64,000 nucleotides of DNA. It comes from Mercenaria mercenaria (Eukaryota). How positions within the stretch are numbered: position 1 is the first letter of the stretch; each line of letters opens with the position of its first letter. Under the pieces are notes generated by a model, which did not search any database, was not told where the DNA came from, and saw only the letters and a list, made by a program, of their open reading frames with translations. The stretch spans positions 63,039,754 through 63,103,753 of the forward strand of contig NC_069372.1 of NCBI RefSeq assembly GCF_021730395.1, in the 5' to 3' direction. Positions 7,129 through 62,124 of the stretch are shown in pieces. The position numbers were made by a program, and so were the translations under genes.

Positions 7129-8308
7129 TTTTAGCTCGACTATTCATAGAATAGTAAAGCTATTGGACTTGCCCATGCGTTGGCGTCCGCATCGGCGTCC
7201 TGATTTGGTTAAATTTTTGTATGTAAGCTGGTATCTCAGTAACCGCTAGTGGGAATTGATTGAAACTTCACACTCTTTTTCACTGTGATAAAATGACTTA
7301 CATTGCACAGGTTCCATAACTCTATTTTGCTTTTTTTCCAAAATTAAGCCCCATTTTCAACTTAGAAATTTTTGGTTAAAGTTTTGTATGTAAGCTGGTA
7401 TCTCAATATCCACTAATGGGAATGGATTGAAACTTCATACACTTGTTCACTGACATAATCTGACATGTACTGTGCAGGTCCCATAACTCTGCTTTGTATT
7501 TTACAAAATTATGCCCCTTTTTCGACTTAGCTGTTTTTGGTTAAGTTTTTATATGTAAGCTGGTATCTCGGTATCCACAAATGAGAATGGATTGAAACTT
7601 CACACACTTGTTCACTGTCATGATATGACATGCAGAGCAAAGGTTCAATAACTCTACTTGGCATTATGATGCCCCTTTTTAGCTCACATGTCACAAAGTG
7701 GCACGGTGAGCTTTTGTGATCGCGCAGTGTCCATCAGCCATCCGTGTGTCCGTAAACTTTTGTTTGTGACCACTCTAGGGGTCACATTTTTCATGGGATC
7801 TTATGAAAGTTGGTCAGAATGTTTATCTTGATGATATCTAGGTCAAGTTCGAAACTGGGTCACGTGCAGTCCAAAACTAGGTCAGTAGGTTTAAAAATAG
7901 AAAAACCTTGTGACCTCTCTAGAGGCCATACTTTTCAATGGATCTTCATGAAAGTTAGTCAGAATGTTTACCTTGATGATATCTAGGTCAATTTTGAAAC
8001 TGGGTCACGTGCTTCAAAAACTAGGTCAGTAGGTCAAATAATAAAAAAATCTTGTGACCTCTCTAGAGGCCATACTTTTGAATTGATCTTCATGAAAATT
8101 GGTCAGACTGTTCACCTTGATGATATCTAGGTCAAGTTCGAAATTGGGTCACATGCTATCAATAACTAGGTCAATAGGTCAAATAATAAAAAAACCTTGT
8201 GACCTCTCTAGAGGCCATATTTTTCATGGGATCTGTATGAAAGTTGGTCTGAAAATTCATCTTGATGATATATAGGCAAGCGTTGCTGTCCTCCGACAGC
8301 TCTTGTTT
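7129..8308 (-). mobile_element. Composite satellite-carrying element. An A-i-type element (GC-rich tail, ~3 monomers of ~180 bp, terminal hairpin module at 8276-8308) is interrupted by a B-type element.
   Basis: It starts ttagctcgactattcatagaatag...gcgttggcgtccgcatcggcgtcc, the reverse complement of the GACGCC tail. Monomers read ggttaaagttttgtatgtaagctggtatctc...ttatgcccctttttcgacttag. It ends gcgttgctgtcctccgacagctcttgttt, the 5' hairpin module in reverse complement. Confidence 0.7.
7679..8275 (-). mobile_element. B-type element nested in the A-i element: 3' terminus (reverse complement) plus ~3.3 monomers of ~165 bp
   Basis: tttagctcacatgtcacaaagtggcacggtgagcttttgtgatcgcgc is the reverse complement of the B 3' end gatcacaaaagctcaccttgtcactttgtgacaggtgagctaaaa seen at 49150-49210. 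Its monomers are reverse complements of those at 27900-29000. It is inserted after a T-run (gccccttttt|agctcac). Confidence 0.65.
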
Positions 8309-9169
8309 AAAATGTAATACTGATTCCTACCTTGGTGATAATTCTGTTGTGTGTTTTGCCCTTGTTTTCGTATTTTTTTGTTAAGTGTATACATAGGCTG
8401 GTTCCTTTCAATTGGAGTTTGGTGTATATTGTTCATTTTGAAATTTGTGTGTCAGCTTTGTTGTTGTCATTAATTTTCTGGTGATGGTGGTTTTAAATAA
8501 CATACAAATATTTAAAGTTTGCTCACTGTCTGATATACTTTTAAATTGACTCTTGTCAAATGATTTACAACTTTAAATATACTTTAAAACAAGATGTTAA
8601 GACGTATTTAATTGATTAACATTTTCGTTAATTTCTTGCTGATATGTCTAAATACTTTTTTTGTTGCCTTTTTCTTCTATTTTTCTTCTCAGTTCTATGT
8701 ATTCTTTGTTTGCTTGCAGTATGATCCACTTGTTAAATACAGTTCTTGGAGATCATATTGTAATTAAGATTGTTGTTGTCTTAATATGTAATCTATTATT
8801 GTTATTATTATTAGACGTAAAGGAAGAACTGTTTTGGACCTGAAGCACATGAGGTTCAGGAAGAACATGTTACATCACTTATCAGCAATCATGGACAGAA
8901 TAAAGTTGACAGATTCCACAAGCACTGAAGTTTAGGTATGCATATAAGTCTTTCTTTCCCAAAATTTTCTTTCAAGATACCGATATTTCAGCAGACTGAA
9001 GATGTAGATGAAGAATTACTACGGGATTTTACTTACAAAGTTAATTTTGAAGTAATAAATATTACAGTATCCAGTTTAACATTGTTAATAACACCCATTT
9101 GTTATTATTTTTTATGAATGTGTACTCTGTAATATTTTCTAAATTCTAAATATTTCAGAGAAATGTTGA

Positions 9170-9419
9170 CCTGGCCCCGTGTTCACAAAGCATTTTTCGG
9201 TCTCAGCTGAGTTTGAGTTTGAAACTTTTAATATCTTTTTTACTAAAACTTCAAGCTTAAATTCCAAATGAGACTGACCATTAATACTGAATAGTCACAT
9301 TAAAATAGTTCTTAACATAAAATTTAGTCTTAAACATGCTATTTAGATATAAATGAGAAGTAAAATTTCATTATCAAACTCAGGTGAGTCTGAAAATGTT
9401 TTGTGAACACGGGGCCCGG
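9170..9419. mobile_element. MITE-like insertion (~250 bp) with ~39-bp imperfect TIRs, inside the first satellite monomer
   Basis: The left end is tggccccgtgttcacaaagcatttttcggtctcagctgag. The right end is ctcaggtgagtctgaaaatgttttgtgaacacggggccc (reverse complement, ~90% identical). An uninterrupted monomer at 10200-10260 reads gaaatgttgatgagcagggatgatgatttg. Confidence 0.6.
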
Positions 9420-11571
9420 AGGGATGATGATTCACATGATTTCTTTGACAAAACAGGAGAAAATAGACAAAAGATTATATGCTGTCATTTATGGTTTCAT
9501 TGGCCATGACAGTGACCCACTTTTGGCTTCATAATTATTTGGAGTTTTTGGCTTATACTCTAAGGAAATTGCGTAGAGATAAATTTTCTTTACCACTTTG
9601 CCTTCAAAATTATCTTTAACAATATGACTGGTGATATGCTGGGTGTCTATGCTCTACATAACTAAAGGCTATACTGTACCTGAAAGGGCGGATGGACCCT
9701 TCTTAAACTTAAATACTAGTATTTTCTAAATTCAAAATATTTCAGGGAAATGTGGATGAGAGGGATTAACAGTGCAGGAGAGAATGAAATGGACAAACAG
9801 ATGGCATGCTGGTCAGAATGAGGTTGACAGATAAAAAGCAAAGCAAGAACCATGAGATGGTAGGTGTTTATATACTGCAAGTTTATGGAGTACTATCAAA
9901 CTTCTTGATATTTCAGGGAAATGTATATACAGGAGAAGTATAGTATAGTACAAAGAGATAGTGAGTATATAAAGTTGTGAATTAAGGGAGTGTTTTCTAA
10001 CTTTTAAATGTTTCAGGGAAATGTGGACGAGGGTGATTAAAGAAGCAGGAGGGAATGGAATGGACTAACAGATTATATGCTGGTCAGAATGCGGTTGACA
10101 GATGAAAAGCGTAAACAAGAACCATGAGATGGAAGGTATATATAATTGCAAATTTAGGGAGTACTTTCTAACTTCTTAATATTTCAAGGATTCTAAATTC
10201 TTAATATTTCAGAGAAATGTTGATGAGCAGGGATGATGATTTGCATGATTCCTTTGACGATACAGGAGAGAATGGAATGGACAAACAGATTACATGGGGT
10301 TGACAGATGAAAAGCGTAAACAAGAAAAATGAGATGGCGGGTATGTAATATTGCTAATTAAGGAAGTATTTTCTAACATTTAGATATTTCAGGGAAATGT
10401 GGATGAGGGTGATTAAAGAAGCAGGAGAGAAAGGAATGGACAAACGGATGACATGGAGGTCAGAATGAGACTGACAGATGAAAAGCGTAAACAAGAAAAA
10501 TGAGATGGCAAGTATGTGATATTGCTAATTGAGGAAGTATTTTCTAACATTTAGATATTTCAGGGAAATGTGGATGAAGGTGATTAAAGAAGATGGAGAG
10601 AATGGAATGGACAAACAGATGACATGGAGGTCAGAATGAGACTGACAGATGAAAAACATGAACAAGAAAAATGAGATGGCGGGTATGTAATATTGCTAAT
10701 TGAGGAAGTATTTTCTAACATTTAGATATTTCAGGGAAATGTGGATGAGGGTGATTAAAGAAGCAGGAGAGAAAGGAATGGACAAACGGATGACATGGAG
10801 GTCAGAATGAGACTGACAGATGAAAAGCGTAAACAAGAAAAATGAGATGGCAGGTATGTGATATTGCTAATTGAGGAAGTATTTTCTAACATTTAGATAT
10901 TTCAGGGAAATGTGGATGAGGGTGATTAAAGAAGCAGGAGAGAAAGGAATGGACAAACAGATGACATGGAGGTCAGAATGAGGCTGACAGATGAAAAACA
11001 TGAACAAGAACAATGAGATGGTGGTATGTAATATTGCAATTAGGAGTATTTCTAACTTTATAGTTTAAACTGATTTTATATTTCCACAAAATTGTATATA
11101 AAACATGGACTATATTAATTAACAAGTTTGATAAAAAGACATACATCAAATCAAAATGTAAACAAACAAACAAACAGAATTTTCAAATCCAATGGTATGA
11201 AAACAAGCTACTTAAAACTTATATGAATTCCGCTCCATAAACTTTTAGATATTTCAGGGAAATGTGGATGAGGGTGATTAAAGAAGCAGGAGAGAATGGA
11301 ATGGAAAAACGGATGACATGGAGGCCAGAATGAGACTGACAGATGAAAAGCGTAAACAAGAACAAGAGATGGTTGGTATTAAAGTTGCAAATTAGGAATT
11401 ATTTTCTAAGATTAAATATTTCAGGGTTATGTGGACGAGAGTGATTGAACGATGAGGAGAGTGTATGGAATGGACAACAGATGACATGCTGGTCAGAATG
11501 AGTTAAAGATGAAAAACTCAAACAAGAAACATCAGATGGTAGGTATTAATAGTTGCAATTAAAAGATTGTT

Positions 11572-12508
11572 TTTAGTGATTTCATAGAATGTGAGCTAGC
11601 ACTGCCATGCGTCGGGTCCGCGTCGGCGTCGGCGTCGCGTCCGTCGCGTCCCGATTTGGTTAAGTTTGTATGTAAGCTGGATCAGTAACCACTTGTGAGA
11701 AATGGATTGAAACTTCACACAAATATCACTGTGACAAATGACTTACATTGCACAGGTTCCATAACCTAATTTGCTTTTTTACAAAATTAGCCCTTTTCGA
11801 CTTAGAAATTTTGGTTAGGTTTTGTATGTAAGCTGGTAACGCAGTAACCACTTGTGGGAATGGATTGAAACGTACACTTATTCACTGTGATGAACTGATC
11901 AACAATTGCACAGGTTCCATAACTCTATTTTGCTATTTACAAATTATGCCTTTTTCGACTTAGAAATTTTTGTTAAGGTTTTGTTGTAAGCTGGTATCCA
12001 CAGTATTACAATGGGAATGGATTTGAAACTTACATACTTGTTCACTATCATGATCTGACATGCACTAAGCAAGTCCCATAAATTTCATCTCATTTTTTTC
12101 AAAATTATGCCCTTTTTCGACTTTAGCAGTTTTTGGTTAAATTTTTGTATGTAATCTGATATCTCAAGATACACTAATTGGAATGGATTGAAACTTCACA
12201 CACTTGTTCACTGGTCATGATTAACATGCACTGATGAAGGTCCATAACCTACTTGGCATTTTTACAAAATTATGGCCCTTTGACTTAGCAGTTTTTTGTT
12301 AAGTTTTTGTATGTAAGTGTATCTCAGTATCCAAAATTGGAAAGGATTGAAACTTCACACACTTGTTCACTGTCATGATATGACATGCAGTACAGAGGTC
12401 ATACCTTACTTTGCATTTACAAAATTATGCCCCTTTTCAACTTTTGTATTCATTCAATTGACAAGGCTGTTGAATAGTCGAGCGTTGCTGTCCTCCGACA
12501 GCTCTTGT
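11572..12508 (-). mobile_element. A-i-type satellite-carrying element (GC-rich tail, ~5 monomers of ~175 bp, terminal hairpin) inserted into the 170-bp array
   Basis: It starts tttagtgatttcatagaatgtgagctagcactgccatgcgtcgggtccgcgtcggcgtcggcgtc. Monomers read ggttaggttttgtatgtaagctggta...cccttttcgacttagaaatttt. It ends ttgaatagtcgagcgttgctgtcctccgacagctcttgtttt. The satellite resumes immediately at 12509. Confidence 0.7.
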
Positions 12509-13484
12509 TTTCTAAATTCTGAATATTTCAGGGAAATGTGGACAAGGTAGAATTAACAATGCAGGACAGAATGGAATGGACACGCAGATGAGACATGCTG
12601 GTCAGAATAAGGCAAGATGAAAAGTGTAAACAAGAACCATGAGATGGTACGTATCAGTAGGTATATATAGTTGCAAATTTAAGAAGTATTTTCATAATTT
12701 TGATTATTTCAGGGAAATGTGGACAAGGTGGGATTAATGATGCAGGACAGAATGGAATGGACAAGCAGATGACATGCTGGTAAGAATGAGGTTGGCAAGA
12801 ACCATGTAAACAAGAACCATGAGATGGTACTGGTAGGTATATATAATTGCAGTTTTCTAAATCTATATATTTCAGGAAAATGTGGACGAGGATGGATGAT
12901 GATTTCCATACCTTTGACTACTCTGGAGAGAATGGAATGGACAAATAGATGCTGGTCAGAATGAAGCTTACAGATGAAAACAATCAACAAGAACCGTGAG
13001 ATGGTGGGTATTTGAAGTTGCAAATTCAGGAAATATCTATAGTTAGGATTTAGCTTAAATTTTTGAATACTTGGGTATGTTGCAGCCTGACAAAATAGTG
13101 TTTTTTTATGTATTTAAAAATTTATGTTTGACATGCAGCATTGAATATAACGGAAAATGTTTAAATGTTCTGGGCTTTTTTGAGAACAGTCTCTTTATAA
13201 TTCTTATGTAAACATAAGACTAACTGTTTCTGTTATTACCTGTACTATACAGTGCACTTAATACATGTATAGCTAAGCACAGTATATTTGTACTACCACT
13301 GAAAAATGTTTTTATCCGAGTTTTATTCAAAATTCTACAATTTTTGTAGATAAAAATTGGAACATGTATAACTTATGCAGTATACTAAGTATCATTTGTA
13401 CCAAAAATTTATATCTTTATAGTATCGTTGTGCTACAGACTTACCACGATATTTGGTTGTTTGTAGGTACTGTTCCCATCAAGT

Positions 13485-16398: not shown

Positions 16399-17037
16399 TT
16401 TTAGCTCCACTTTTCAAAGAGAAAGTAGAGCTATTGCACTCGCCCCGGTGTCGGCGTTGGCGTTGTTTAAAGTTTTTGATAATGTCAAATATCTCTGTTA
16501 CTATCAAAGCTATTGACTTGAAACTTGAAATACTTATTTTCTATCAAAGTCTACACCAGGAGAAACATTCCCCATAACTCTGATTTGGATTTTGTCAGAA
16601 TTATGCCCCTTTTTAACATGGAATTTTTGGTTAAAGTTTTTGATAAAGTCAAATATCTCCATTACTATTAAAGCTTTTGACTTGAAACTTAAAAGAGTTA
16701 TTTACTATCAAAGTCTTCACCTGGAGAAACAATTTCCATTACTCTGATTTGAATTTTGACAGAATTATGCCCCTTTTTAACTTAGGATTTTTTGTTAAAT
16801 TTTTTGATAAAGTCTAATATCTCTGTTACTATTAAAGCTTTTGACTTGAAACTTAAAGTTGTTATTTACTATCAAATGCTACATCTGGAGAAACAATCCC
16901 CATTACTCTGATTTGAATTTTTGAGTTGTGTCCCTTTTTAACTAGGAATTTATTATTTTTTTTACTGGCAAAGCTCTTATTCAGAGTCAAGCACTGAGAA
17001 AAGTCGAGCATGCTGTCTGTAAGACAGCTTTTGTTTT
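16399..17037 (-). mobile_element. A-ii-type satellite-carrying element (GC-rich tail, 3.5 monomers of ~173 bp, terminal hairpin)
   Basis: It starts tttagctccacttttcaaagagaaagtagagctattgcactcgccccggtgtcggcgttggcg. Monomers read gttaaagtttttgataa(a/t)gtcaaatatctc...aattatgcccctttttaac. It ends gagaaaagtcgagcatgctgtctgtaagacagcttttgtttt. A same-family copy in + orientation lies at 58244-59185. Confidence 0.7.
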
Positions 17038-19104: not shown

Positions 19105-19435
19105 CGCCAATGGTACCTGGTCCGTATAGGGTACATGGAAGTACCTGGTTATTGTATGGTACCAAAGGGGTACCTGGTAAGTATATGGTACATGGAAGTA
19201 CCTGGTTACTGTATGGTACCAAAGGGGTACCTGGTTTGTATATGGTACCAAAGGGTGCCGGGTTCGTATATGGTACATGGAAGTACCATATGGTACATGG
19301 AAGTACCTGGTTCGTGTATGGTACCAAAGGGGTATCTGGTTTGTATATGGTACATGGAAGTACCTGGTTCTTATATGGTACCAAAGGCGGTGCCTGGTTC
19401 TACCTGGTTAACCGTACCGAAGGGTACGGGGGATG
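19105..19435. repeat. Minisatellite with 30/60-bp period (ggtacctggtt..tgtatggtaccaaagggg alternating with tacatggaagtacc), ~5.5 x 60 bp
   Basis: Direct periodicity. Flanked by a 10-bp inverted repeat gttgcgccaa (19089-19098) and ttggcgcaac (19464-19473). Confidence 0.8.
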
Positions 19436-19924
19436 GCATGGCATAGTGTTTGTACAATATTTTTGGCGCAACGAGGTTCGAATCATCTAAGGCATGCCCG
19501 GGTCGCGCCCTTTGTGAGGATCTTCAACTTCAATCGCCATTTAACGTTTGAAGTCTTAAGCCATCGTGACCGTCTTTCAATCCACACTTACCCTAAACGA
19601 AAAATAAACTTGTGTTTATAATCGGAAGTGTTTTTATTTTCTTTTAAACATGAAAGCTTGGGTTTTATGATGGTACGTCAACCCAGGAATTTGATCCTAG
19701 AATAAAGGGGTTTTCGGATTAGAAAGGTTTCTATTTTAGAACAAAAAATTATGTTGTTTGTTACACATGAAGTGTAAATTTATCTTTTTTTGTACAGACT
19801 AATAAAAATAATCAAATTATAAGCAGCATGTAGATTGCTTTAGTGTAATGTAAATTTCATGTTAATTCAACTTCTCACAAGGCAGTCTGAAAGACAGCTA
19901 AATCCCCCGCCACTGCTATGGATA

Positions 19925-21010
19925 GTGAAAGGGTAAACCTTTGATTTTAGCTGTGACCTTGACCTTGAACTGACATGGCTGACTCATGAATTCTGCACAA
20001 CGTCTTGATGAGGTGATCATTTGACCCAAGTTTCATGAAAATCCTTCAAGGGGTTTAGGAGATACAGAGCTGAAACCTTTGACCTTCAGTTGTGATCTTG
20101 ACCTTGAGTTGACATGGCTGACTCATGAGTTCTTGATGAGGTGATCATTTGACCCAAGTTTGGTGAAAATCCTTCAAGGGGTTTAGGAGATACAGAGTGG
20201 ACACAAATTGGAAGGCTCAAACCTTCGACCCTTAGTTGTGACCTTGACCTTGAGCTGGCATGGTTGACTCATAATTTCTGCACATCATTTTGATGAGGTA
20301 ATCATTTTACCCAAGTTTTATAAAATTCCTTCAAGGGGTTTAGGAGATATAGAGTGGACACGAAATGGAAGGCTCAAACCTTTGACCTTCAGTTGTGACC
20401 TTAACCTTGAGCCGACATGGCTGACTCATAAGTTCTGCACATCACCTTGATGAGGTGATCGTTTGACCCAAGTTTGATGAAAATCCTTCAAGGAGTTTAG
20501 GAGATATAGAGCGGACACAAAATGGAACGCTCAAACCTTTGACCTTAAGTTGTGACCTTGACCTTGAGCAGGCATGACTGACTCATGGGTTCTGCACATC
20601 GTCTTGATGAGGTGATCATTTGACCCAATTTGATAAAATTCCTTCAAGGGGTTTAGGAGATATAGAGCGGACACAAAATGGAAGGCTCAAACCTTTGACC
20701 TTGAGTTGTGACCTTGATCTTGAGCCGACAAGGCTGACCCATGGGTTCTGCACATTGTCTTGATGAGGTGATCATTTGACCCAAGTTTCATGAAAATCCT
20801 TCAAGGAGTTTAGAAGATATAGAGCAGACACAAAATGGAAGGTTCAAAACCTTTGACCCTAAGTTGTGACCTTGACCTTGAGCCAGCATGGCTGACTCAT
20901 GGGTTCTGCACATCATCTTGATGAGGTGATCAATTGACCCAAGTTTTATAAAATTCCTTCAAGGGGTTTATGAGATATAGAGCGGACACAAAATGGCAGG
21001 CTCAAACCTT
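19925..21010 (+). repeat. C-family satellite array, ~157-bp monomer x ~7, with no recognisable element termini (truncated)
   Basis: The monomer is tgacccaagttt.atgaaaatccttcaagg.gtttaggagata.agag.ggacacaaaatggaagg.tcaaacctttgacc.t.agttgtgaccttgaccttgag..g.catggctgactcatg.gttctgcaca.c.tcttgatgaggtgatcattt. It is related to the arrays at 42030-42560 and 50000-51100 (gtgaccttgacctt...gacctgg...atgaca..gatatggaccggacacgaaa). Confidence 0.85.
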
Positions 21011-21507
21011 TTATTAAATATCACTTGTAAACATTTTTTTCACCACTCCTACATTCCCAGGAAGTAGCTTAAAGAAGACTATTTTACTTGACCGGTTTTT
21101 GTAATAATCCGATTTAGTACCACTTTTTGAGGAAGGTACAGATTAATAAGGATCTATTACATTAGCAGTACTTATTGCACATAATGTCTATAATTCTTAC
21201 ATTATTTCTGTTCAAACAAAGTATTTGAACTTACTTCTTTCACACCTGTGCTTATTGCATGGATCTACAAAACAAAACTGACATGACTTTTGATTACCAG
21301 TGTTTGGACCTATTGTTGTTGACATCTTTATAAAGAGTAATAGCTAAAATTGTAAACAGACTGAAAAATGTCAAAATGTGAGCAAGATCCCTTCATTAAA
21401 TTGCACTGTGTAATGTAAATACAATCAAACCTGTGTTAAGACCACCCCAGAACAGAGACCATCTGGCTCTAAAAACCACAGGTTTTGTTTCCCATTATAA
21501 CATACAA

Positions 21508-22330: not shown

Positions 22331-22995
22331 AAAAATGTGGAAATTCATAAGAAGTATATACCTAAGATGACTTGTTAATAAAAAATATTGAAACTTTTTA
22401 ACCAAAAAGAACTCGGATAATATTTAGTTTAAAATTATTCTTTCTGGCTTTTTCAGATCCTATATCTCAAAGCATCAACACTACAACCAGAGCTTATGAA
22501 GAGAATCGCCTATACATGAAGAAGTTTTAAATAAACACATAAACTAAGACAGACACCACCTAGGATTTGTGATTTTTGTTTTAAATTAAGGGACTACTGC
22601 CAATAGTTCAAGATTTGTTAGAAAGTGTTTGTGGTGCTTACTTTAATTAATACATGTATCCTCATAATTATTGCTTTTTTTTGTAACGATACTTATATAT
22701 TCTGTATTCTATATATTTGCTTTGAGGAAATGAGTTCATTTAGAAGAATGGAATAAATTTCATATCTAGTTGCATTTGTCATGGCCACATCTTTTTACCC
22801 TGACTGGTCATCAATTAATTATGCCCTCCTTCAAAATTGATTGGACATATTGTTTTGCTCATTGTCTGTCTGTCTGGCTGTACGGTTGGTATACCGTTTG
22901 GGTTTCTGGTCAACAACTAGAGAGTGCTTGGTCTCACAATGATTTAACTTTACAGGATGATGGCCTCTAGACAGTATATGATTTTTTTTAACCTC

Positions 22996-23956: not shown

Positions 23957-23959
23957 CTC

Positions 23960-24012
23960 TTGTTTTATTTGAGTTTTACGTCGCACCAACACAGTATAGG
24001 TTATATGGCGCC
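23960..24012 (-). mobile_element. 5'-truncated SINE 3'-tail fragment
   Basis: gagttttacgtcgcaccaacacagtataggttatatggcgcc matches the tail motif tttaacgtcgcaccgacac.t.ataggt.atatggc at 30301-30340 and 63490-63530. Confidence 0.5.
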
Positions 24013-47467: not shown

Positions 47468-49210
47468 ACAAGAGGACCATGATGGTCCTGAATCGCTCAC
47501 CTCTTCCCACATGACCCAGTTTCGAGTATGACGTCATTTTTTCTATTATTTGACACAGTGACCTAGTTTTTGAGCTCATGTGACCCAGTTTTGAACTTGA
47601 CCTAGATATTATCAAGATAAAAATTCTGACCAATTTTCATGAAGATCCATTGAAAAATATGGTCTCTAGAGAGGTCACAAGGTTTTTCTATTATTTGACC
47701 TAGTTTTCGAAGGTACGTGACCCTGTTTTGAATTTTATCCAGATCATCAAGGTGAACATTCTCACTAATTTTTATGAAGATCTCATGAAAAATATGGCCT
47801 CTAGAGAGGTCACAACGTTTTTCTATTTTTATACCTACTGACCTAGTTTTTGACCACACGTGACGTGACCCAGTTTCGAAACTGACCTAGATATCATCAA
47901 GGTGAACATTCAGATCAATTTTCATGAAGATCCATTGAAAAATAGGGCCTCTAGAGAGGTCAAAAGATTTTAATAATTTTTGACCTACTGACCTAGTTTT
48001 TGACCACAGTTGACCCAGTTTCAAATTTGACCTAGATATCATCAAGAACATTCAGACCAACTTCCATACAGATCCCATGAAAAGTATGGCCTCTAGAGAG
48101 GTCACAAGTTTTTTTTATTATTTGACCTACTGACCTAGTTTTTTAGGGCACGTGACCCAGTTTCAAACCTGACCTAGATATCATCAAGGTTAACATTCTG
48201 ACCAATTTTTATGGAGATCCATTCACAAGTATGGCTTCTAGAGAGGTCACAAGGTTTTTCTATTTTTAGACCTACTGACCTAGTTTTTGACCGCACATGA
48301 CCCTGTTTCGAACTTGACCTAGATATCATCAAGATGAACATTCAGACCAATTTTCATACAGATCCCATGAAAAATATGGCCTCTAGAGAGGTCACAAGGT
48401 TTTTATATTATTTGACCTACTGACCTAGTTTTTGAAGGCACGTGACCCACTTTCGAATTTGACCTAGATATCATCAAGGTAAACATTCAGACCAACTTTC
48501 ATGAAGATCTCATGAAATATATGGCCTCTAGAGAGGTCACAAGGTTTTTCTATTTTTAGACCTACTGATCTAGTTTTTGACCGCATGTGACCGAGTTTCG
48601 AACTTGACCTAGAAATCATCAAGATGAACATTCAGACCAACTTTCATACAGATCCCCTGAAAAATATGACCTTTAGAGAGGTCACAAGGTTTTTCTATTA
48701 TTTGACCTACTGACCTAGTTTTTGATGGCACGTGACCCAGTTTCGAACTTGACCTAGAAATCAACAAAGTGAAAGTTCTGACCAATTTTCATGAAGATCT
48801 TGTGCAATATATGGCCTCTAGAGAGGTCACAAGGTTTTTCTATTTTTAAACCTACTGACCTAGTTTTTGATGACACGTGACCCAGTTTCGAACTTGACCT
48901 AGATATCATCAAGGTGAACATTCTGACCAATTTTCATGAAGATCTTGTGAAATATATGGCCTCTAGAGAGGTCACAAGGTTTTTCTATTTTTAGACCTAC
49001 TGATCTAGTTTTTGACGGCACGTGACCCAGTTTCGAACTTGACCTAGATATCATCAAGATGAACATTCTGACCAACTTTCATAAAGATCCCATGAAAAAT
49101 GTGACCTCTAGAGTGGTCACAAGCAAAAGTTTACGGACGCACGCACGCACGACGGACACCGCGCGATCACAAAAGCTCACCTTGTCACTTTGTGACAGGT
49201 GAGCTAAAAA
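47468..49210 (+). mobile_element. B-type satellite-carrying element (~10 monomers of ~166 bp) inserted into the last higher-order repeat unit
   Basis: The 5' end is acaagaggaccatgatggtcctgaatcgctcacctcttccc, with a 17-bp perfect palindrome aggaccatgatggtcct. The 3' end is gacggacaccgcgcgatcacaaaagctcaccttgtcactttgtgacaggtgagctaaaaa. Host sequence resumes at 49211 ccaaccactcccaacaaaaaccaactgcctccgaacaaa. Confidence 0.8.
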
Positions 49211-49548
49211 CCAACCACTCCCAACAAAAACCAACTGCCTCCGAACAAATTAACTACAAAAAATTTGAAACTGAAGGTTTAAAATGGTGCAATCTGGTGT
49301 ATTTTGGGGTGTTTTTTCTTTACTTTGTCTACCTATATTTTTGTATACAATAAAGACATAAAAACATAATTCCTCTTAAAAATGCATTTGTGACATCACA
49401 TAACAAGAGTGTCAGAATGTCACAATATACGCCCGTCACAGCAAATTTCTTTACACTAGCACCTGTATTTGCAAATGGAATTTTAATTTTCTAGTTGTTT
49501 ACAATGTTGTTTTTTTTTTAAGAAATTATTGTAATTCTTTTATTTTTC

Positions 49549-50698
49549 CAAGTCCACAAAAAAAATCCTTACCAGGTAGAGATACCTTAAAATACACCCA
49601 AAATTTGAAAGTAACATCAATGTTCTACCACAGAAAAGTGGTCTTGGTTTTTCCCTATGGTCAATTATAAAAAAGTAACAATGTAAGTTATTTATAGTAA
49701 CTACTAAGGGAAGTTAATCTTTAGAGAAAAAAAAATTGTAAGTCCGCACAAAAATCTTTACCAGGTACAGATTGGTCAAAATACTCCTCAAAATTGGATG
49801 TAGCATGCATGTTGTACTACAGAAAAGTGGTCTCGATTTTTCCCTACGCCTAGTAATGAAGAAGTTACAATATAAGCTATTTATAGTAACAACAAAGGGA
49901 AGTAATTCTAAAGGAAATGTGCATGACATTTCCTCTCATGATGGTGTATAATTGTGCCAAGTTGCATCAAAATCCCTCCATGCATGAAGAAGAAATGCTT
50001 CGGACAAAGTCATTCTTGTATCTGACCTTTGGCGTCTAAATGTGACCTTGACCTTAGACCTGGGGACCTGGGAATTGCGCATGACACTCCGCCTCATGGT
50101 GGTGAACATTTGTGACAAGTTACATCAAAATCCCTCTATGCATGAAGAAAGAATGCTCCGGACAAAGTTTTCATTCTTGTATCCTTTGACCTCTAAGTGT
50201 GACCTTGACCTTAGACCTAGGGACCTGGTTCTTGTGCATGACACTCCGCCTCATGGTGGTGAACATTTCTGACAAGTTATATCAAAATCCCTCTATGCAT
50301 GAAGAAGAAATGCTCTGGACAAAGTTTTCATTCTTGTATCCTTTGACCTCTAAGTGTGACCTTGACCTTAGACCTAGGACCTGGTTCTTGCGCAAGACAC
50401 TCCGTCTCATGATGGTGAACAACTGTGCCAAGTTTCATCAAAATCCCTCCATGCATGTAGAAGATATGCTCCGGACAAAGTCATTCTTGAATTTGACCTT
50501 TAACCTCTAAGTGTGACCTTGACCTTATACTTAGAGACCTGGTTCTTGCGCACGACACTCCATCTCATGATGGTGAACAACTGTGCCAAGTTTCATCAAA
50601 ATCCCTCCATGCATGTAGAAGACAAAGTCTGTGGATGCCGCCCACCCGCCAGGGGCGTTCCCATAATACGTCCTGTTTTTCAAACGGGCGTATAAAAA
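49549..50698 (+). mobile_element. C-family element with a tandemly duplicated leader (49549-49720 and 49737-49930), ~4.5 monomers of ~157 bp, and a GC-rich tail with hairpin and ataaaaaggg
   Basis: The leaders read gtccacaaaaaaaatccttaccaggtagagatacc... and gtccgcacaaaaatctttaccaggtacagattggtc.... The monomers read tgacctctaagtgtgaccttgaccttagacctagggacctggttcttgtgcatgacactccgcctcatggtggtgaacatttctgacaagtt. The tail is ggatgccgcccacccgccaggggcgttcccataatacgtcctgtttttcaaacgggcgtataaaaaggg. Confidence 0.7.
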
Positions 50699-50699: not shown

Positions 50700-51160
50700 G
50701 GAAGTAATACAAAAAAATTATTGTAAGAGAACAAAAAAGGGATCTGCAAAATAAAAACAGCACTGCAATGCAGAACAATATACACAAAGCAAAGTCATAT
50801 ATGACCCCTAAGTGTGACCCTGACCTTGAAGCGAGTCATCAAAAACATGCGTTCTGCATGTCGCCTCAGTGTGGTTAACATTTGTGCCAAGTTTCTTTGA
50901 AATCCTTCAAGCAGTTCAAGAGTTACTGAGCAGACACGAAACACTCATGACCTTTGACCCCTAAGTGTGACCTTGACGGTAGTTATCCGAAACAAGCACT
51001 CTGCACGTCATCTCAGTGTGGTGAACATTTGTGTCAAGTTTCTTTGAAATCCTTCAAGGGGTTCAAGAGTTACAGAGCAGACACGAAATTGCTAACGGAC
51101 AGACACCACCGACGTCATAACATAATACGTCCCTTCGGGTGTATAAAAAGTAATTTTGAT
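50700..51160 (+). mobile_element. Short C-family-like element (leader, ~2 monomers of ~150 bp, tail with hairpin)
   Basis: The monomers read gacccctaagtgtgacc.tgac.....ag..atc.aaaacaagc..tctgca.gtc.cctcagtgtggt.aacatttgtg.caagtttctttgaaatccttcaag..gttcaagagttac.gagcagacacgaaa. The tail is gctaacggacagacaccaccgacgtcataacataatacgtcccttcgggtgtataaaaag. Confidence 0.55.
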
Positions 51161-53338: not shown

Positions 53339-53380
<42 letters not shown>

Positions 53381-53467: not shown

Positions 53468-54912
53468 CCTAACAAGAGCTGTCTGTTGACAGTGCGCTTG
53501 ACTATTCAAAGCATTGATAGAAGTACAGGGTCAAAATATTACCCGAGATTTTCAGACAAAAGAAAAGGAACAGATAAGACAAACAATGTACACGCATTTG
53601 CGGATTTGGATAAGTTTTGCACTATAATGCAATGTGTGACCATGTTCAGGGATATAAACTAGTTATTTTTATTTAGGGGCCCAGACTGTCAAAAATAAAT
53701 GTTTAACATTAGGTATATGGCATTTTCTCCAACACTTTAGGGGCCCAGTCCAAAATTTAGGGGCAATGGGCTACTGGGCCCCTGCTAATTTATATGCCTG
53801 ATGTTGGTACGCAAGTGTTCAAAGTGTCAAAGCCATATATCAAACAGTTGATAGACAAAATATCGAATGGTGTGCGAAACCTAACTAATTTTTATGTCCA
53901 GAAAAGGACCATAACTGAGCTCAAATCCTTGTTCTAGGTAAGCAGACTATGAAGGTAAACAAGTGGTCAAAGTTTCAAAGCCATATGACAAACAGGTTAT
54001 GCATAATATAGACTGGTACGAAAATTTTCACTGATTTCCAAGTCCAAAAAGGGCCACAATTTAGCGAAAATAGTTGACAGAGTTATGTACTCTTGCCTAC
54101 AGACGGAAATCATGATGATAAGTGTTCAAAGTTTCAAAGCCACATGTCAAATAGCTTTGACAAAACGTTGACTTGTACGAAAACTAAACCAATTTCCAAG
54201 TCCAAAAAGGATAATAATTCAGCCAAAACAGTTGACAGAGTTACATTGCCTTGCCTACATATGGAAATCATAATGATAAACAAGTGTTCAAAGTTTAAAA
54301 GCCACATGTCAAATAGTTTTGACAAAACATGGACTTGTACGAAAACTGAAACAATTTCCAAATCAAAAAGGGCCATAATTCAGTCAAAATAGTTGAGAGT
54401 TGTGTACTCTTGCCTACAGATATAAATCATGATGATGAACAATTGTGCAAACTTTCAAAGCCACATGTCAAATAGTCTTGACAAAACAAGGACTTGTACA
54501 CAAATTGTACAAATTTCCAAGTCCAAATAGGGCCATAATTCAGTCAAAATAGTTGCTAGTAATGTACTCTTGTCTACAGATACAGATAGAGACTGTTATA
54601 ATAAACAAGGGATAAAAGTTTCAAAGCCATATGTCAAACATTTTACACAAAATGTGAATTGGTACGAAAAACTTAACCAAGATTTCTAAGTTAAAAGGGG
54701 CCATAATTCATCCAAAATCCTTGATAGAGTTAGGTACTCTTGCCTACAACTGGACATGGTGATGGTAAACAAGTGTTGAAAATTTAAAAGCTTCATCTCA
54801 AAGACTTTGTCAAAAAGTGGACTAGTATGAAAAACTTAACCAAGGTATGACGCTGATGCCATAGTGAGTAGGACAGCTCTATTTATTCTTTCGAATAGTC
54901 GAGCTAAAGTGT
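53468..54912 (+). mobile_element. A-iv-type satellite-carrying element (5' hairpin module, leader, ~8 monomers of ~150 bp, GC-rich tail), with a small inverted-repeat insertion at ~53670-53790
   Basis: The 5' end is aacaagagctgtctgttgacagtgcgcttgactattcaaag. The 3' end is ggtatgacgctgatgccatagtgagtaggacagctctatttattctttcgaatagtcgagctaaag. The insertion carries ttaggggcccag (x2) facing ctgggcccctgctaa. Confidence 0.75.
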
Positions 54913-55984: not shown

Positions 55985-56090
55985 TTAAAGTTGGCAAGAT
56001 AGTGTCCACAAGCCAGTGAAAGACTGGTCACAATAGCTCACCTTGAGCACTTTCAAAGTTTGTGCTCGGGTAAGCTAAAAATGTGTGGAC
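55985..56090 (+). mobile_element. Solo 3' terminus of a B-like element (5'-truncated)
   Basis: gactggtcacaatagctcaccttgagcactttcaaagtttgtgctcgggtaagctaaaaatg. Confidence 0.5.
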
Positions 56091-57885: not shown

Positions 57886-59540
57886 AACAAGAGCTGTTGG
57901 AGGATAGCAATGCTCGACTATTCAACAGCCTTGTCAATTGAATTAATACAAAGGTTGAAAAAAGGGGCATAATTTTGTAAAATGCAAAGTCGAGTTATTG
58001 AACCTCTGTACTGCATGTCATATCATGACAGTGAACAAGTGTGTGAAGTTTTAATCCTTTCCCATTAGTGGATACTGAGGTGCCAGCTTACATACAAAAA
58101 CTTAACCAAAAACTGCAGAATTTGTAAAAATGCAAAGTAGAGTTATGGGACCTTCACAGTGCATGTTAGACCATGACAGTGAACAAGTGTGTGAAGTTTC
58201 AATCCATTCCAATTAGTTAGTACTGAGATACCAGCTTACATAAACAAGAGCTGTCCGTAAGACAGCGCGCTCGATTTTTCTCAGTGCTTGACTCTGAATT
58301 AGAGCTTTGCCAGTAAAAAAAATTCCAAGTTAAAAAGGGACATACTTCTGTCAAAATTAAAATCAGAGTTACGGGAATTGTGTCTCCTGGTGTAGACTTT
58401 GATAGAAAATAACTGTTTTGAGTTTCAAGTCAAAAGCTTTAATAGTAACAGAGATATTTCACTTTATCAATTTTGTTTTTTTAAAATTCTAAGGAAAAAA
58501 GGGGCATAATTCTGTCAAAATTCAAATCAGAGTTATGGGAATTGTGTCTCCTGGTGCAGACTTTGATAGTAAAAAACCATTTTGAGTTTCAAGTCAAAAG
58601 CTTTAATGGTAACAGAGATATTTGACTTTATCAAAAATTTTAACAAAAAATTCTAAGTTAAAAAGGGGCATAATTCTGTCAAAATTCAAATCAGTGTTAT
58701 GGGGATTGTTTCTCCTGGTGTAGACTTTGATGGTAAATAAGTATTTTAAGTTTCAAGTCAAAAGCCTTGATAGTAACAGATATATTTGACTATCAAAAAA
58801 TTCTAAGTTAAAAAGGGGCATAATTCTGTCAAAATTCAAATCAGTGTTATGGGGATTGTTTTTTCTGGTGTAGACTTTGATGGTAAATAAGTATTTTAAG
58901 TTTCAAGTCAATAGCTTTGACAGTAACAGAGATTTTTGACTTTATCAAAAACTTTAACCAAAAATTCTAAGTTAAAAAGGGGCATAATTCTGCCAAAATT
59001 TGAAACCAGAGTTATGGGGATTGTTTCTCCTGGAGTAGACTTTGATAGTAAATACCTATTTTAAGTTTCAAGTCAATAGCTTTGATAGTAACAGAGATAT
59101 TTGACTTTACCAAAAACTTTAACCAACGCTGACGCCATGGCGAATGCAATAGCTCTACATTTTCTTCGAAAAGTCGAGCTAAAAACCTTAACCAAAAATT
59201 TCTAAGTTGAAAAGGGGGCATAATTTTGTAGACAAAGCAAAATAGAGTTACAGAACCTGTGCAATGTATGTCAGTTTATCACGTTTATCACAGTGAATAA
59301 GTGTGTGAAGGCACAAAAAGGGGGCATACTTTGCTCAAAATACATGTTAGAATTATGGAACTTGAACCAGTGAGGATGGTTATTGTCCTAGAAAAAGAAA
59401 AAAATAAGTTTCAAATCTATAATTATGCCTTTAAATGACAGCTGTATGTACTTGCATGCAAAACTTTAACCAAGGTAGGACGCCGACGCCAAGGTCAGCA
59501 GAATAGCTAGACTATTCTTCCAATACTAAGTCAAGCTAAA
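57886..59540 (+). mobile_element. Composite outer element: A-type 5' hairpin module, 2 A-i monomers, then A-iii-type monomers and a GC-rich tail, carrying a nested A-ii element
   Basis: The 5' end is aacaagagctgttggaggatagcaatgctcgactattcaacag. Monomers read ...gtgaacaagtgtgtgaagtt..aatcc.ttcc.attagt..atactgag.taccagcttacat. The 3' end is ggtaggacgccgacgccaaggtcagcagaatagctagactattcttccaatactaagtcaagctaaaaatc. Confidence 0.65.
58244..59185 (+). mobile_element. A-ii-type element nested in the outer element (5' hairpin module, ~5 monomers of ~173 bp, GC-rich tail)
   Basis: Host sequence cttacataaa|caagagctgtccgtaagacagcgcgctcgatttttc ... cgctgacgccatggcgaatgcaatagctctacattttcttcgaaaagtcgagctaaaaac|cttaaccaaaaa. 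An uninterrupted host monomer reads cttacatacaaaaacttaaccaaaaa (58090-58115). Confidence 0.8.
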
Positions 59541-60504
59541 AATCTATACCAGTGATTTTCATGTTATAAAGATTGGTGCTACTGACCACTCATTTTTTTA
59601 GCAGCGTAATATCGTTTCCTGTGTGTCATTCCTTGGTGACATGACAAATATTTACCGCATAGTTGAAGTAGTTCAAAGTGTAGACAAGAATCAGTACATT
59701 TATAAAATTTACATATTTATCCAATCAAAACTACATTTTTATTGAAAATTAGTGTTCACAGTTATTGCATATATCCATAATAAAGTGCATCTGCAATCTG
59801 TTTACTCTCATATCTTTCAATTCCTTTAAGTATTGAATTACTTTGATGTTGCATGTATGGAAAAAGGTAGCAATGAACCGGAACCATGTGTTCTTGGTCT
59901 TGGTCTCATGAAGAATATTTACATCGTAAAGCGTGCGCCTACTAGCACTGACTGCCATCCATTATTTAATAAGTACTCAAAGAATAGGACAGATATTTAA
60001 TTTTAAGCTCTATAGTCCTGAAGAGTATACAATGAAAGAACATCAGTTAAAATAATTATTTTATGCATTGCTATTTTTGAAATAATAAAAAAAGTCTATG
60101 ATTTTCTGGGACAACCCTCGTATTGTGCTGAAAATGAGATTATTTTGGACTAATTTTCAGAAAATATGTACTTATGAAAATTTGAATTTTGAAACAATTT
60201 TGTAGATTTCTAGAGTATCACAAACAAGCTGTCAAAATAAAGTGTCACTTTATTCTACAGATCAAGAGACAGTCTCTAAGTTTAACAACAAAATAAATAG
60301 ATGAATAGATAATTAAATACCAACAAAGATGTTTTTACTTTTTCATACACACATGAGCACTGTCGTATCGCATTGGTAAAAATGAAAGATCTTGTGTGCA
60401 CGAGTTGAAGTATTAGATTTTAATCTTACATGTGAAAGAAAATATTTTCTTTCTTTTCTTTTTAATGATTTAATCCACAATTCCTCCAGTTTTGTTCAGG
60501 CAGT

Positions 60505-60587
60505 GTTGTGCAGGCTAGTAACAATGCCCGATCAGGCTTTCGACATAAAACTAATATTTCTTGAAAAATAGTAAATATAATTTTTTC
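60505..60587 (-). repeat. Left arm of a ~2.2-kb-spaced inverted repeat (~85% identical to 62631-62714); a third partial direct copy lies at 62921-62972
   Basis: gttgtgcaggctagtaacaatgcccgatcaggctttcgacataaaactaatatttcttgaaaaatag, compared with the reverse complement of ...tttcaagaaacattagtttttatgtctaaagcccgatcgggcaatgttaccagcctgttgtgtgc. Confidence 0.65.
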
Positions 60588-60633
60588 AAACTTGCTCCAT
60601 TTATTAAGCATTTCACATGACACAAATTAAAAT

Positions 60634-62124
60634 AACAAGAGCTGTCCGTAAGACAGCCAAGCTCGACTATTCGAAATATTGTCACAGAAGCAGGGAATTA
60701 TTACCCAAAATGTGAAATATCAAAAGAGGTTTAAGTTAGAAAGGGGACATAATTTGACCAAAATACATATCAGAGTTATGGGACTTGATGTTATCAACTA
60801 GTTTTATAACCCCGAAGAAACATGTTAAGTTTCAATTCAATATCTGCATTAGTTTTGGGGATAGTAACTTGCATGTAAAACTTTAACCAGAATTTTTTAA
60901 GTCCAAAAGGGGGAATAATTTGCTCAAAATACATGTTAAGAGTTATGGAACTTGACCCAGTGAGGTTGGTAATTGACCTAGAAAAAGAAAAAATAAGTTT
61001 CAAATCTATATGCCTTTTAGTAATAGCTGTATGTACTTGCACGCAAAACTTTAACCAGGATTTTCTAAGTCCAAAAGGGGGCATAATTTGCCCAAAATAC
61101 ATGTCAGAGTTATGGGACTTGGTGCTATCAACTAGTTTTATAACCCCGAAGACACGTGTGAAGTTTCAATTTAATATCATGTAGTAGTTTTGGAGATAGT
61201 TACTTGCATGTAAAACTTTAACCAGGATTTTCTAAGTCCAAAAGGGGCATAATTTGCCCAAAATACATGTCAGAGTTATGGGACTTGACCCAGTGAGGTA
61301 GGTAATTGATCTAGAAAAAGAAAAATAAGTTTCAAATCTATATGCCTTTTAGTAATAGCTGTATGTACTTGCATGCAAAACTTTAACCAGAATTTTCTAA
61401 GTCCAAAAGGGACATAATTTGGCCAAAATACATGTCAGAGTTATGGGACTTGACCCAGTGAGGTAGGTAATTGATCTAGAAAAGAAAAAATAAGTTTCAA
61501 ATCTATATGCCTTTTAGTAATAGCTGTATGTACTTGCACGCAAAACTTTAACCAGAATTTTCTAAGTCCAAAAGGGGACATAATTTGGCCAAAATACATG
61601 TCAGAGTTATGGGACTTGACCCAGTGAGGTAGGTAATTGATCTAGAAAAAGAAAAAATAAGTTTCAAATCTATATGCCTTTTAGTAATAGCTGTATGTAC
61701 TTGCACGCAAAACTTTAACCAGAATTTTCTAAGTCCAAAAGGGGGCATAATTTGGCCAAAATGAAGGTCAGAGTTATGGGACTTGGTGCTATCAACTAGT
61801 TTTATAAACCCGAAGGCACATGTGAAGTTTCAATTCAATATCTACATTAGTTTTGGAGATAGTAACTTGCATGTAAAACTTTAACCAGAATTTTCTAAGT
61901 CCAAAAGGGGGCATAATTTGCTCAAAATACATGTAAGAGTTATGGAACTTGACCCAGTGAGGTTGGTAATTGACCGAGAAAAAGAATAAATAAGTTTCAA
62001 AGCTATATGCCTTTAAATGATAGCTGTATGTACTTGCATGCAAAAACTTAACCAAGGTGTGACGCCGACGCCGACGCCAGGGTGAGTAGAACAGCTAGAC
62101 TATTCTTCGAATAGACAAGCTAAA
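60634..62124 (+). mobile_element. A-iii-type satellite-carrying element (5' hairpin module, ~9 monomers of ~152 bp, GC-rich tail)
   Basis: The 5' end is aacaagagctgtccgtaagacagccaagctcgactattcgaaatattg. The 3' end is ggtgtgacgccgacgccgacgccagggtgagtagaacagctagactattcttcgaatagacaagctaaaaat. The monomers match the reverse complement of 23100-23900. Confidence 0.8.

Follow-up and report, generated by a model that had tools for sequence, protein, structure and literature searches.

Satellite-carrying elements with the build of non-autonomous Helentrons in a 64-kb stretch of the Mercenaria mercenaria genome

Short elements that carry tandem repeats between conserved flanks are already well known from bivalves and related literature, as pearl (2003), DTC84 (2013), HINE/Helentron (2014) and Cg_HINE (2020). 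In HINEs, the left flank (LF) is composed of a 5' subterminal inverted repeat (subTIR), a further inverted repeat close by, and a (GTCY)n microsatellite, after which the central repeats follow; the right flank (RF) is composed of the 3' subTIR and then a palindrome, and insertion occurs at TT without a target-site duplication (TSD) (PMC7492417, PMC4067079). The older pearl/DTC84 drawing is reversed, running from L through the core repeats and an ACGG microsatellite to R, with an 'AA TSD' (PMC3879986); pearl, MgE and DTC84 have been listed as DINE-1-like, alongside mollusc genomes with Helentron proteins (supplementary tables, PMC4067079). For Mercenaria, the published repeat annotation gives bulk figures, 4-5% of the genome for rolling-circle elements and 10% for satellites. 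Here we describe elements of this build in a stretch of 64,000 nucleotides from Mercenaria mercenaria (assembly GCF_021730395.1, contig NC_069372.1, positions 63,039,754 to 63,103,753 of the forward strand), hereafter the window, and argue that they are, with a probability of roughly 0.87, HINEs of the pearl/DTC84/Cg_HINE kind and thus non-autonomous rolling-circle transposons of the Helentron (Helitron2) type.

With a GC of about 0.35, the window is AT-rich; 56% of it has matches elsewhere within the window. It contains 13 complete elements (E1, E3, E4, E5, E8, E11, E12, E13, E14, E15, E17, E18 and E19) and at least nine partial ones of the same build, the elements making up roughly 30% of the window; one further fragment is amplified six times in a macro-tandem array (37.8-46.5 kb). 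An earlier note on this DNA, made from the letters alone, had proposed a single architecture shared by many elements, and this is borne out, the motifs it singled out occurring at the sites it gave and above chance: GAGCTAAAA is found 9 times against 0.63 expected, a count reached in none of 100 shuffles; ACAAGAG is found 18 times against 8.9 expected, 13 of the 18 at element ends; and all eight sites of the form CTGTC-n4-5-GACAG adjoin an ACAAGAG-type terminus (in the variant ACAAAAG at 17036). Searched with profile hidden Markov models of both ends, the window yields 14 ACAAGAG-side ends, while on the GAGCTAAAA side there are 16 intact ends and six split copies; Tandem Repeats Finder reports more than 20 short arrays with a period of 144-189 bp and 1.8-11 copies; the tandem monomers that had been placed inside the elements do lie between these ends. 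The terminus ACAAGAG with its hairpin is likewise real, but its label has to be changed: the note followed the pearl/DTC84 orientation, so that what it called the 5' end is the 3' end in the Helentron convention, where it reads CTCTTGT. This convention is used throughout the following and is referred to as the canonical orientation.

In canonical orientation, the 5' side reads (T)4-5 AGCTC, followed by GACTATTCGAA or ACCTGTCAC..., a loop, the complement, and GAGCT; the interior consists of (GGCGTC)n or (GTCN)n, a short leader, and 2-11 tandem monomers of 144-189 bp; and the 3' side reads TTCGAATAGTCGAGC or AGGTGAGC, then GCTGTC-n-GACAGC or GGACCATCATGGTCC, then TCTTGT, and finally a T of the host. 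The subTIRs are asymmetric in position, the distance between the start of the subTIR and its end of the element being 2-8 nt on the 5' side and 28-43 nt on the 3' side. Both inverted-repeat pairs named previously (GCTCGACTATTCGAA / TTCGAATAGTCGAGC and GCTCACCT / AGGTGAGC) are present; across elements the match spans 7-19 nt, and in 8 of 12 elements no more than 6 of 300 shuffles match as well, the test failing in the chimeric E1 and E17 and in the degenerate E3, and being weak in E8. The inverted repeat adjoining the 5' subTIR folds as DNA into a hairpin of -5.5 to -13.8 kcal/mol (z -2.0 to -5.6). The 3' palindrome ends 5-6 nt from the 3' end and reaches z -2.3 to -3.3 in types A and B, where it takes the forms GCTGTC-n-GACAGC, GGACCAT-C-ATGGTCC and GGGCCAT-C-ATGGCCC. 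The hairpin described for type B, GGACCATGATGGTCC, is present at 47474, with a truncated copy at ~27790; the CTGTC/GACAG hairpin ascribed to types A and C holds for type A, but in type C it is imperfect (CTGTCTCCGTAGGATGACAC), and shuffled sequences fold just as well.

The stems of the hairpins vary between families while their complementarity is kept (TATTC/GAATA, TTTTC/GAAAA, TGTCAC/GTGACA, GAGCC/GGCTC, GAGCAC/GTGCTC, and GGACCAT/ATGGTCC against GGGCCAT/ATGGCCC). A formal covariation count covers the outer 5' stem, the inner stems of types A and B differing in length and being out of register; the outer stem pairs in 84.6% of cases, compared to 24-37% when the partner column is slid. The microsatellite that follows the 5' module is (GGCGTC)n, (GTCC/GTCT/GTCG)n or (CCGTCC)n. 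When the elements are divided by the subTIR rule of Thomas et al. (PMC4067079), at least five subTIR families emerge (GCTCGACTATTCGAA; GCTCGACTTTTC; AGCTCACCTGTCAC and variants; ATGCCCCCGA; and TATACGCCCGT), and the terminus CTCTTGT is common to all of them. The three types originally distinguished are too few, the elements at 49403-50698, ~50757-51148, 33082-34061, 19880-21011 and 22818-24283 falling outside them. Coding capacity is absent: the window has no open reading frame (ORF) longer than 160 aa, no Pfam domain is found in the ten longest ORFs of the window and of two related contigs (L002 and L009, see below), and neither a tRNA (ARAGORN) nor an Rfam family is found at threshold in the window. 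The class first suggested, Helentron/pearl/HINE-like, is in keeping with all this, as all the structural hallmarks of HINEs open to a test on sequence are present, the 3' palindrome of type C being the weak one.

The elements and partial elements are listed below by position, with the strand on which they read in canonical orientation. The range 7129-62124 initially given for the set has to be widened, one end lying outside it at 3302-3342.

3302-3342, + strand: type-B-like 3' module (RF) with 3' subTIR CTCAGTTGAGC, palindrome GGGCCATCATGGCCC and end CTCTTGT; a 471-bp repeat (2.6 copies, 1933-3132) lies upstream, and no 5' module was found for this end.
7129-8306, + strand: E1, chimeric; type-A 5' module (7129-7185) and 165-bp monomers (2.7 copies, 7204-7659), then a second 5' module, of type B (7677-7735), 144-bp monomers (3.6 copies, 7764-8280) and type-A 3' module (8267-8306).
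11566-12508, + strand: E3, type A, with degenerate 5' module, (GGCGTC)n, 158-bp monomers (4.5 copies) and intact 3' module.
16399-17036, + strand: E4, type A', with subTIR GCTCCACTTTTC / GAAAAGTCGAGC, 164-bp monomers (3 copies) and the 3' end variant CTTTTGT.
19880-21011, - strand: partial type-C-like element with the 3' module-like end GCTGTCTTTCAGACTGCCTTGT (canonical orientation) and 157-bp group III monomers (5.6 copies); no 5' module was found for it.
22818-24283, + strand: type-C-like element with 5' module ATTATGCCCTCC... and then (GTCT)n near 22818-22880; 3' module at 24243-24283, end CTCTTGT.
22987-23963, + strand: E5, type A, with a 17-nt subTIR match, (GGCGTC/GACGTC)n and 167-bp monomers.
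26108-26167, - strand: solo 5' module TTTTAGCTCAACTGAGCAC..., continued towards lower coordinates by CCGTCCGTCC and a partial monomer (to ~25990).
27787-29090, - strand: E8, type B, with 144-bp monomers (7.8 copies) and a small 3'-end deletion (…GGACCATCATGGTCTTGT).
29830-30079, - strand: 3'-truncated copy (canonical orientation) with type-B-like 5' module AGCTCACCAGAGCC/GGCTCAGGGTGAGCT and ~190 bp of interior; homologous to metagenome contig L009, 8575-8830.
33082-34061, - strand: type-C-like element with 5' module TAGTCCCCTACTGGTTGAAAACCAGTTTTGGGGACTA, then (CCGTCC)n, and monomers of group III; a clear 3' module was not found.
34062-35431, - strand: E11, type A, with 164-bp monomers (6.7 copies).
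37837-46492, - strand: split type-B 5' module in six copies, with ends at 37971, 39052, 40088, 41471, 44184 and 46492.
41854-42617, - strand: E12, type C, with subTIR ATGCCCCCGA / TCGGGGGCAT, (GTCN)n and 163-bp monomers (3.7 copies).
47468-49209, - strand: E13, complete type B, with 5' hairpin AGCTCACCTGTCAC/GTGACAAGGTGAGCT, (GTCC/GTGC)n and 145-bp monomers (11 copies); 3' side with subTIR AGGTGAGC, palindrome GGACCATCATGGTCC and end CTCTTGT.
49403-50698, - strand: E14, DTC84-like, with 5' module TATACGCCCGTTTGAAAAACAGGACGTA, arrays of 189 bp (1.8 copies) and 157 bp (4.5 copies), 3' subTIR ACGGGCGTATA and end CTCTTGT.
~50757-51148, - strand: diverged DTC84-like or type-C-like element with 5' module TTTTTATACACCCGAAGGGACGTAT, microsatellite remnants, 147-bp monomers (1.8 copies) and a degenerate 3' end; head-to-tail with E14.
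53472-54908, - strand: E15, type A, with 159-bp monomers (5.4 copies).
56012-56084, - strand: solo type-B-like 5' module AGCTTACCCGAGCAC ... GTGCTCAAGGTGAGCT.
57887-59541, - strand: E17, chimeric type A; E19-type 5' module and first monomer joined to E1-type monomers and 3' module.
58244-59184, - strand: E18, type A' (E4 family), with 164-bp monomers (5 copies).
60635-62125, - strand: E19, complete type A, with (GGCGTC)3 and 166-bp monomers (7 copies).

The solo ends that had been reported are confirmed by profile search at ~26108-26167, 29830-30079 and 56012-56084. The isolated end at 3302-3342 has a 3' subTIR complementary to the subTIR of the solo 5' module at 26108-26167, which lies 23 kb away on the opposite strand.

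Two insertions can be compared with clean empty counterparts. E12 occupies the A/T run of the macro-tandem unit, of which the window holds six uninterrupted paralogous empty sites (empty: ...CAGCAATGG(A)6-8CCCGCG...; filled: ...CAGCAATGGAA / ACAAGAG...GGGGGCAT / AAAAACCCGCG..., slashes set off by spaces marking the element boundaries here and below), and the flanks of E19 have an inverted paralogue, the empty site, at 62490-62665 (empty: AATTAAAATAAAAATAACTT; filled: AATTAAAATA / ACAAGAG...AGCT / AAAAATAACTT). Both elements lie within an A-run (a T-run on the canonical strand); the count of A/T bases is about equal in filled and empty sites, nothing else is duplicated at either site, and in both elements the T-run adjoining AGCTC looks target-derived. 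The base after CTCTTGT is T at 13 of 13 ends in the window, as it is in 10 of 11 metagenome contigs and in the single element of contig L013 (see below). The sites of other insertions are as follows: E3 is inserted at TTTT of a 171-bp satellite-like array; E5 is nested at a T8 run inside the type-C element at 22818-24283; E11 sits precisely on the 5' boundary of the element at 33082-34061 (…CTCTTGT / TAGTCCCC), whose 5' end abuts the 3' end of E11; and E18 is nested at an A/T run in a monomer of E17. This insertion-site evidence argues against retroposition and against ordinary cut-and-paste MITEs (miniature transposable elements with inverted repeats).

DTC84 is an element of Donax trunculus whose core repeat ends in the palindrome TTGTCCGGACAA (Satovic & Plohl 2013, PMC3879986). 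It follows the same modular plan as the window elements (L, core repeats, tetranucleotide microsatellite and R, with A on either side), and here the likeness extends to sequence: the reverse complement of DTC84mobR (TACGTCCCGTTTTTCAAACGTGCG) matches positions 50667-50690 at 22 of 24 nt, with no match in 100 shuffles, and the first 8 nt of DTC84mobF (AACAAGAGCACCGCTGGGCG), namely AACAAGAG, are the terminus of the window elements. Judged by these matches, E14 is DTC84-like at its 5' module. Beyond its first 8 nt, the L-flank of DTC84 differs, its 20-mer finding no match within three mismatches. The group III motif TCCGGACA resembles the core-repeat palindrome of DTC84, and TGCTCCGGACAA occurs twice in the 157-bp monomers, but the palindrome match, at 5 hits against 2.3 expected, is not above chance. 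The R flank of DTC84 is shared by one or two window elements only (49403-50698 and ~50757-51148), whereas types A and B have other subTIRs and monomers, and the host species is another. The suggestion that the families defined by these termini may not have been described is thus only partly right, at least one of them being DTC84-like; searched for literally across 8 million papers, the subTIRs and termini gave unrelated primer matches only and no printed description.

The Crassostrea gigas elements Cg_HINE_1 to _11_12 (PMC7492417) resemble those of the window in build: their LF is made up of 5' subTIR, inverted repeat and (GTCY/GTCC/GTCK)n, followed by a variable leader and by tandem repeats of 138-181 bp in fixed orientation, and their RF of 3' subTIR and palindrome; they use a T-rich TT target without a TSD, combine related flanks with unrelated repeats, and form nested, shuffled loci. 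They differ in that their CL1 monomers are unrelated to the window monomers and in that type A of the window uses the hexamer GGCGTC; the likeness of their flanks to the window termini is drawn at the level of architecture. HINE/DINE-1 elements and Helentrons at large (Thomas, Vadnagara & Pritham 2014, PMC4067079) share with the window subTIRs of 12-15 bp (near the 5' end, but tens of nt away from the 3' end), an inverted repeat close to the 5' subTIR, a 3' palindrome of 5-10 bp, microsatellites, central repeats, and insertion at TT with variable T runs at the boundaries. In the window, however, the palindrome ends 5-6 nt short of the 3' end, a distance at the lower limit of the published 8-35 nt or slightly below it, the 3' subTIR starts 28-43 nt from the end compared to a published 38-60, and the elements are not linked to an autonomous partner. 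Pearl (CvA/CvE/CvG of Crassostrea virginica, and Anadara) and MgE (Mytilus galloprovincialis) are likewise bivalve elements with up to six core repeats of ~160 bp, a microsatellite and inverted-repeat flanks; conserved boxes occur in their core repeats, for which a relation to bivalve satellites is described, the comparison with the window being one of architecture only.

Relatives of the window elements are found in other sequence collections. A pattern derived from the type A 3' module alone matched 11 marine metagenome contigs, and in 6 of these 11 the type A 5' module (TTAGCTCGACTATTCGAAGAATA..GAGCT), which was absent from the query, occurs 100-2130 bp upstream. Metagenome elements with central repeats continue after the 5' module with a GCGTC-type microsatellite and repeats of 164-174 bp; identity to window elements reaches 92-94% in two of the contigs, against 71-75% in the monomers of the others. 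The ends are thus far better conserved than the cargo, as would be expected of transposition signals. One contig (L011, 387-487 in reverse-complement coordinates) carries a 100-bp mini-element composed of type A 5' and 3' modules without central repeats, which shows that the two modules are by themselves able to define a unit. A search of prokaryote genomes with the 5' module yielded a single contig, L013, binned in a Sedimenticola metagenome-assembled genome. Its element is complete in 557 bp (3889-4445, - strand), with (GGCGTC)5, an TTGGTTAAGGTTTTT junction box, two 161-bp monomers and the 3' end ...AATAGTCGAGC..CTGT-n-ACAGCTCTTGT, followed by T. The contig has a GC of 0.445 and a Harbinger-type DDE_Tnp_4 gene in two pieces (ORFs 2962-3699 and 6112-6996, - strand) around the HINE; because of this GC value and this gene it is evidently eukaryotic DNA in a bacterial bin, probably host DNA, perhaps of a clam, that was mis-binned. 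The DDE_Tnp_4 gene was considered as the partner of the HINE and rejected, as the HINE ends enclose 557 bp only. Scans of viral contigs with the type A 3' and 5' modules gave no matches; one viral contig matched by a looser 3' pattern (L012) lacks the subTIR and is probably a chance match.

The monomers fall into three groups, and related monomers all have the same orientation relative to the element ends. Group I comprises the monomers of all type A families and of the metagenome elements, which share the boxes GGTTAAAGTTTT, TTGAAACTT, CCATAACTCT and AATTATGCCCCTTTT; it has one constant orientation, and it is invariably at the GGTTAA box that its array adjoins the microsatellite. The 144-bp monomer of type B makes up group II, and the monomers of type C and of the DTC84-like elements (157-163 bp) make up group III. 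E1 and E17 are chimeras. In E17, the switch from E19-type to E1-type monomer takes place inside an ATGCCCCCTTTT box (junction region 59300-59330), and in E1 (8255-8306) the microhomology ATAGGCAAG/ATAGTCGAG is where the 144-bp monomer passes into the type A 3' subTIR. Such junctions at short shared sequences suggest that template switching or recombination reshuffles flanks and arrays; shuffled, nested loci are already known in C. gigas (PMC7492417).

The macro-tandem array extends over ~37342-47467 (continuing at 49213-49262) and has units of 1.0-2.7 kb with internal sub-repeats of ~520 bp and 51 bp. In every unit there is one and the same type-B 5' module, and a palindromic insert of ~76 nt (GTCGTCACCTCAACGCAAC...GTTGCGTTGAGGTGACGA) interrupts the loop of its hairpin. 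The six ends at 37.8-46.5 kb go back to a single fragment that was amplified along with its flanks and do not represent six insertions; the array later received the insertions of E12 and E13. Its minus strand also seems to contain recurring short segments that resemble exons and have splice-like borders.

The assignment to Helentrons has to be weighed against four other readings. In the original description of pearl and DTC84, such elements are cut-and-paste MITEs, mobilized by a DDE transposase with an AA/TT dinucleotide TSD. Inverted repeats are indeed present, an A (or T) stands on both sides of every copy, an AA TSD was proposed in the DTC84 paper (PMC3879986), and a duplication of 1-2 bp could be accommodated inside a homopolymer; the field, however, has moved pearl, MgE and DTC84 to the Helentrons (PMC7492417, PMC4067079). 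In the window, moreover, the inverted repeats are subterminal and asymmetric (2-8 against 28-43 nt). Of the TSDs and terminal inverted repeats of the cut-and-paste kind, which the earlier note had named as evidence that would overturn its classification, there is no sign: the termini (T)nAGCTC and CTCTTGT do not form an inverted-repeat pair, A/T counts are about equal in filled and empty sites, and the two clean empty sites reveal no TSD, all of which makes a cut-and-paste origin very unlikely. Canonical Helitrons (Helitron1) have a 5'-TC and a CTRR-3' terminus, insert between A and T, and lack inverted repeats. Non-autonomous derivatives of these would account for the hairpin near the 3' end, the missing TSD and the missing coding capacity, and Repbase names the C. 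gigas counterparts 'Helitron-N'; but the window elements have neither the 5'-TC nor the CTRR-3' terminus, their target lies between T and T rather than A and T, and they possess subTIRs, so that this assignment is, if anything, harder still to sustain.

It might also be held that the elements are not mobile units at all, but satellite arrays spread by segmental duplication or recombination, with the flanks as array borders. Both processes have left traces, as the six split 5' modules (37.8-46.5 kb) did amplify with their flanks and the chimeras did form at shared boxes. As an account of the whole set this is nevertheless highly improbable: independent copies with unrelated flanks have sharp boundaries at the same nucleotides, paralogous empty sites lack exactly the whole unit, the same ends enclose different monomers or, in the 100-bp LF+RF mini-element of L011, none, and the same ends recur in other organisms (the metagenome contigs and L013). 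The reading with almost nothing to recommend it is that of retroposition in the manner of short interspersed elements (SINEs), which is suggested by the orientation of the earlier note, where an A-run end and '5'-truncated' copies recall sequences mobilized by long interspersed elements. There is an A-run at one end, and the solo copies keep that end only; but the A-run of E19 is target, not tail, because it is already there in the empty site, TSDs of variable length are absent at the two clean empty sites, the elements have no RNA polymerase III head and no tRNA or Rfam match, and the opposite end has a conserved hairpin and a defined sequence.

Several points weigh against the Helentron assignment itself. 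An autonomous Rep/helicase partner with the same termini, for which the earlier note had proposed a search, was found neither in the window nor in the 13 related contigs (L001-L013) nor in the viral and prokaryote collections, and the assignment consequently rests on structure; the authors of the C. gigas study likewise had no link from their HINEs to any autonomous Helentron (PMC7492417). Clean empty sites are those of E12 and E19 only, the hosts of E13 and E3 being of low complexity or diverged, and since base counts were taken in diverged homopolymer runs, a T/A duplication of 1-2 nt may be present. The 3' palindrome of type C does not differ significantly from shuffles (z +0.2 in E12, +0.8 at the 24283 end), and we infer transposition of the window elements from their sequence.

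If the elements are non-autonomous Helentrons, their movement can be outlined from the Helentron literature. Rep/helicase, with or without an AP (apurinic/apyrimidinic) endonuclease, would be supplied by an autonomous Helentron elsewhere in the genome and would recognize the terminal modules in trans. A nick would be made at the boundary between T-run and AGCTC, and the strand would be peeled off or replicated towards the 3' end (rolling-circle or peel-and-paste), stopping at the palindrome and CTCTTGT; the single strand would then be joined into a T-run, leaving no duplication. Premature termination or later deletion would give rise to the solo 5' modules (3'-truncated copies), and chimeras would form at boxes shared between monomers or between monomer and subTIR. 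Nested and head-to-tail copies would share one orientation because the T-runs are supplied by the elements themselves, on their canonical strand. The satellite-like arrays would be cargo, and would thereby be scattered through bivalve genomes.

The orientation of the elements switches near 25 kb. To the left of this point, they lie on the + strand (3342, 7129, 7677, 11566, 16399, 22818 and 22987), only the one at 19880-21011 being on the - strand; from 26108 to 62125, all are on the - strand. Counted as independent insertions, the ratio of + to - is about 5:1 on the left and 0:12 on the right (hand-computed Fisher p ~7e-4, before correction for the choice of breakpoint). The unique DNA shows only a weak switch in AT/GC skew near 25 kb. 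The supply of T-runs was considered as the cause and rejected, runs of T5+ outnumbering those of A5+ on the + strand of the unique DNA on both sides. The switch could result from two transcription units or from strand-specific integration; among bacterial HUH transposons, integration that is strand-specific relative to replication or transcription is known for the IS200/IS605 family. CTCTTGT followed by T is common to at least five subTIR families, to DTC84 of Donax and to other marine contigs, and this is the ground for a more far-reaching proposal, by which one long-lived Helentron Rep lineage would cross-mobilize many unrelated satellite carriers in heterodont bivalves. By a second proposal, the strand partition would reflect integration that is strand-specific to replication or transcription, not selection or chance. 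Taken together, these proposals are speculative and rather unlikely.

Further features of the window lie outside the elements or host them. The 171-bp satellite-like array at 9717-13036, which hosts E3, has a strong GC skew (0.36 in the 10-12 kb bin) and is unrelated to the HINE monomers. A minisatellite with a 34-bp unit (1.5 kb, 4553-6111; higher orders of 21/55/68/131 bp) has the sequence GTAACCAGAACAGTCATTTCAATAATCTATGATG, and a 57-bp (and 105-bp) tandem repeat at 19112-19398, rich in GGTACC/GGTAC, contains long spurious ORFs on both strands. At 36330-36611 (- strand) there is a tRNA-derived SINE-like sequence, whose head (36538-36611) scores 20.5 bits against the Rfam tRNA model (gathering score 29; E 0.096) and is not called by ARAGORN. 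At 3800-4276 (+ strand), a proline- and valine-rich ORF of 159 aa without Pfam domain is 94% identical to the uncharacterized Mercenaria mercenaria protein LOC123533427 and 86% to LOC128547031; it is probably a dispersed repeat-derived ORF.

What is known of the class is not changed by these elements: it is already accepted that short satellite arrays are dispersed in bivalve genomes by tandem-repeat HINEs. The window provides a dense and well-resolved example from a venerid clam, with the exact termini of several families and internal empty sites; its nested, head-to-tail and chimeric copies illustrate the reshuffling of flanks and arrays, and E14 forms a bridge to DTC84 at the level of sequence. 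In practice, the elements are of use for repeat libraries, where their arrays should not be scored as free satellites, and the ends AGCTC... and ...CTCTTGT, with their subTIRs, serve as search keys for the autonomous partner.

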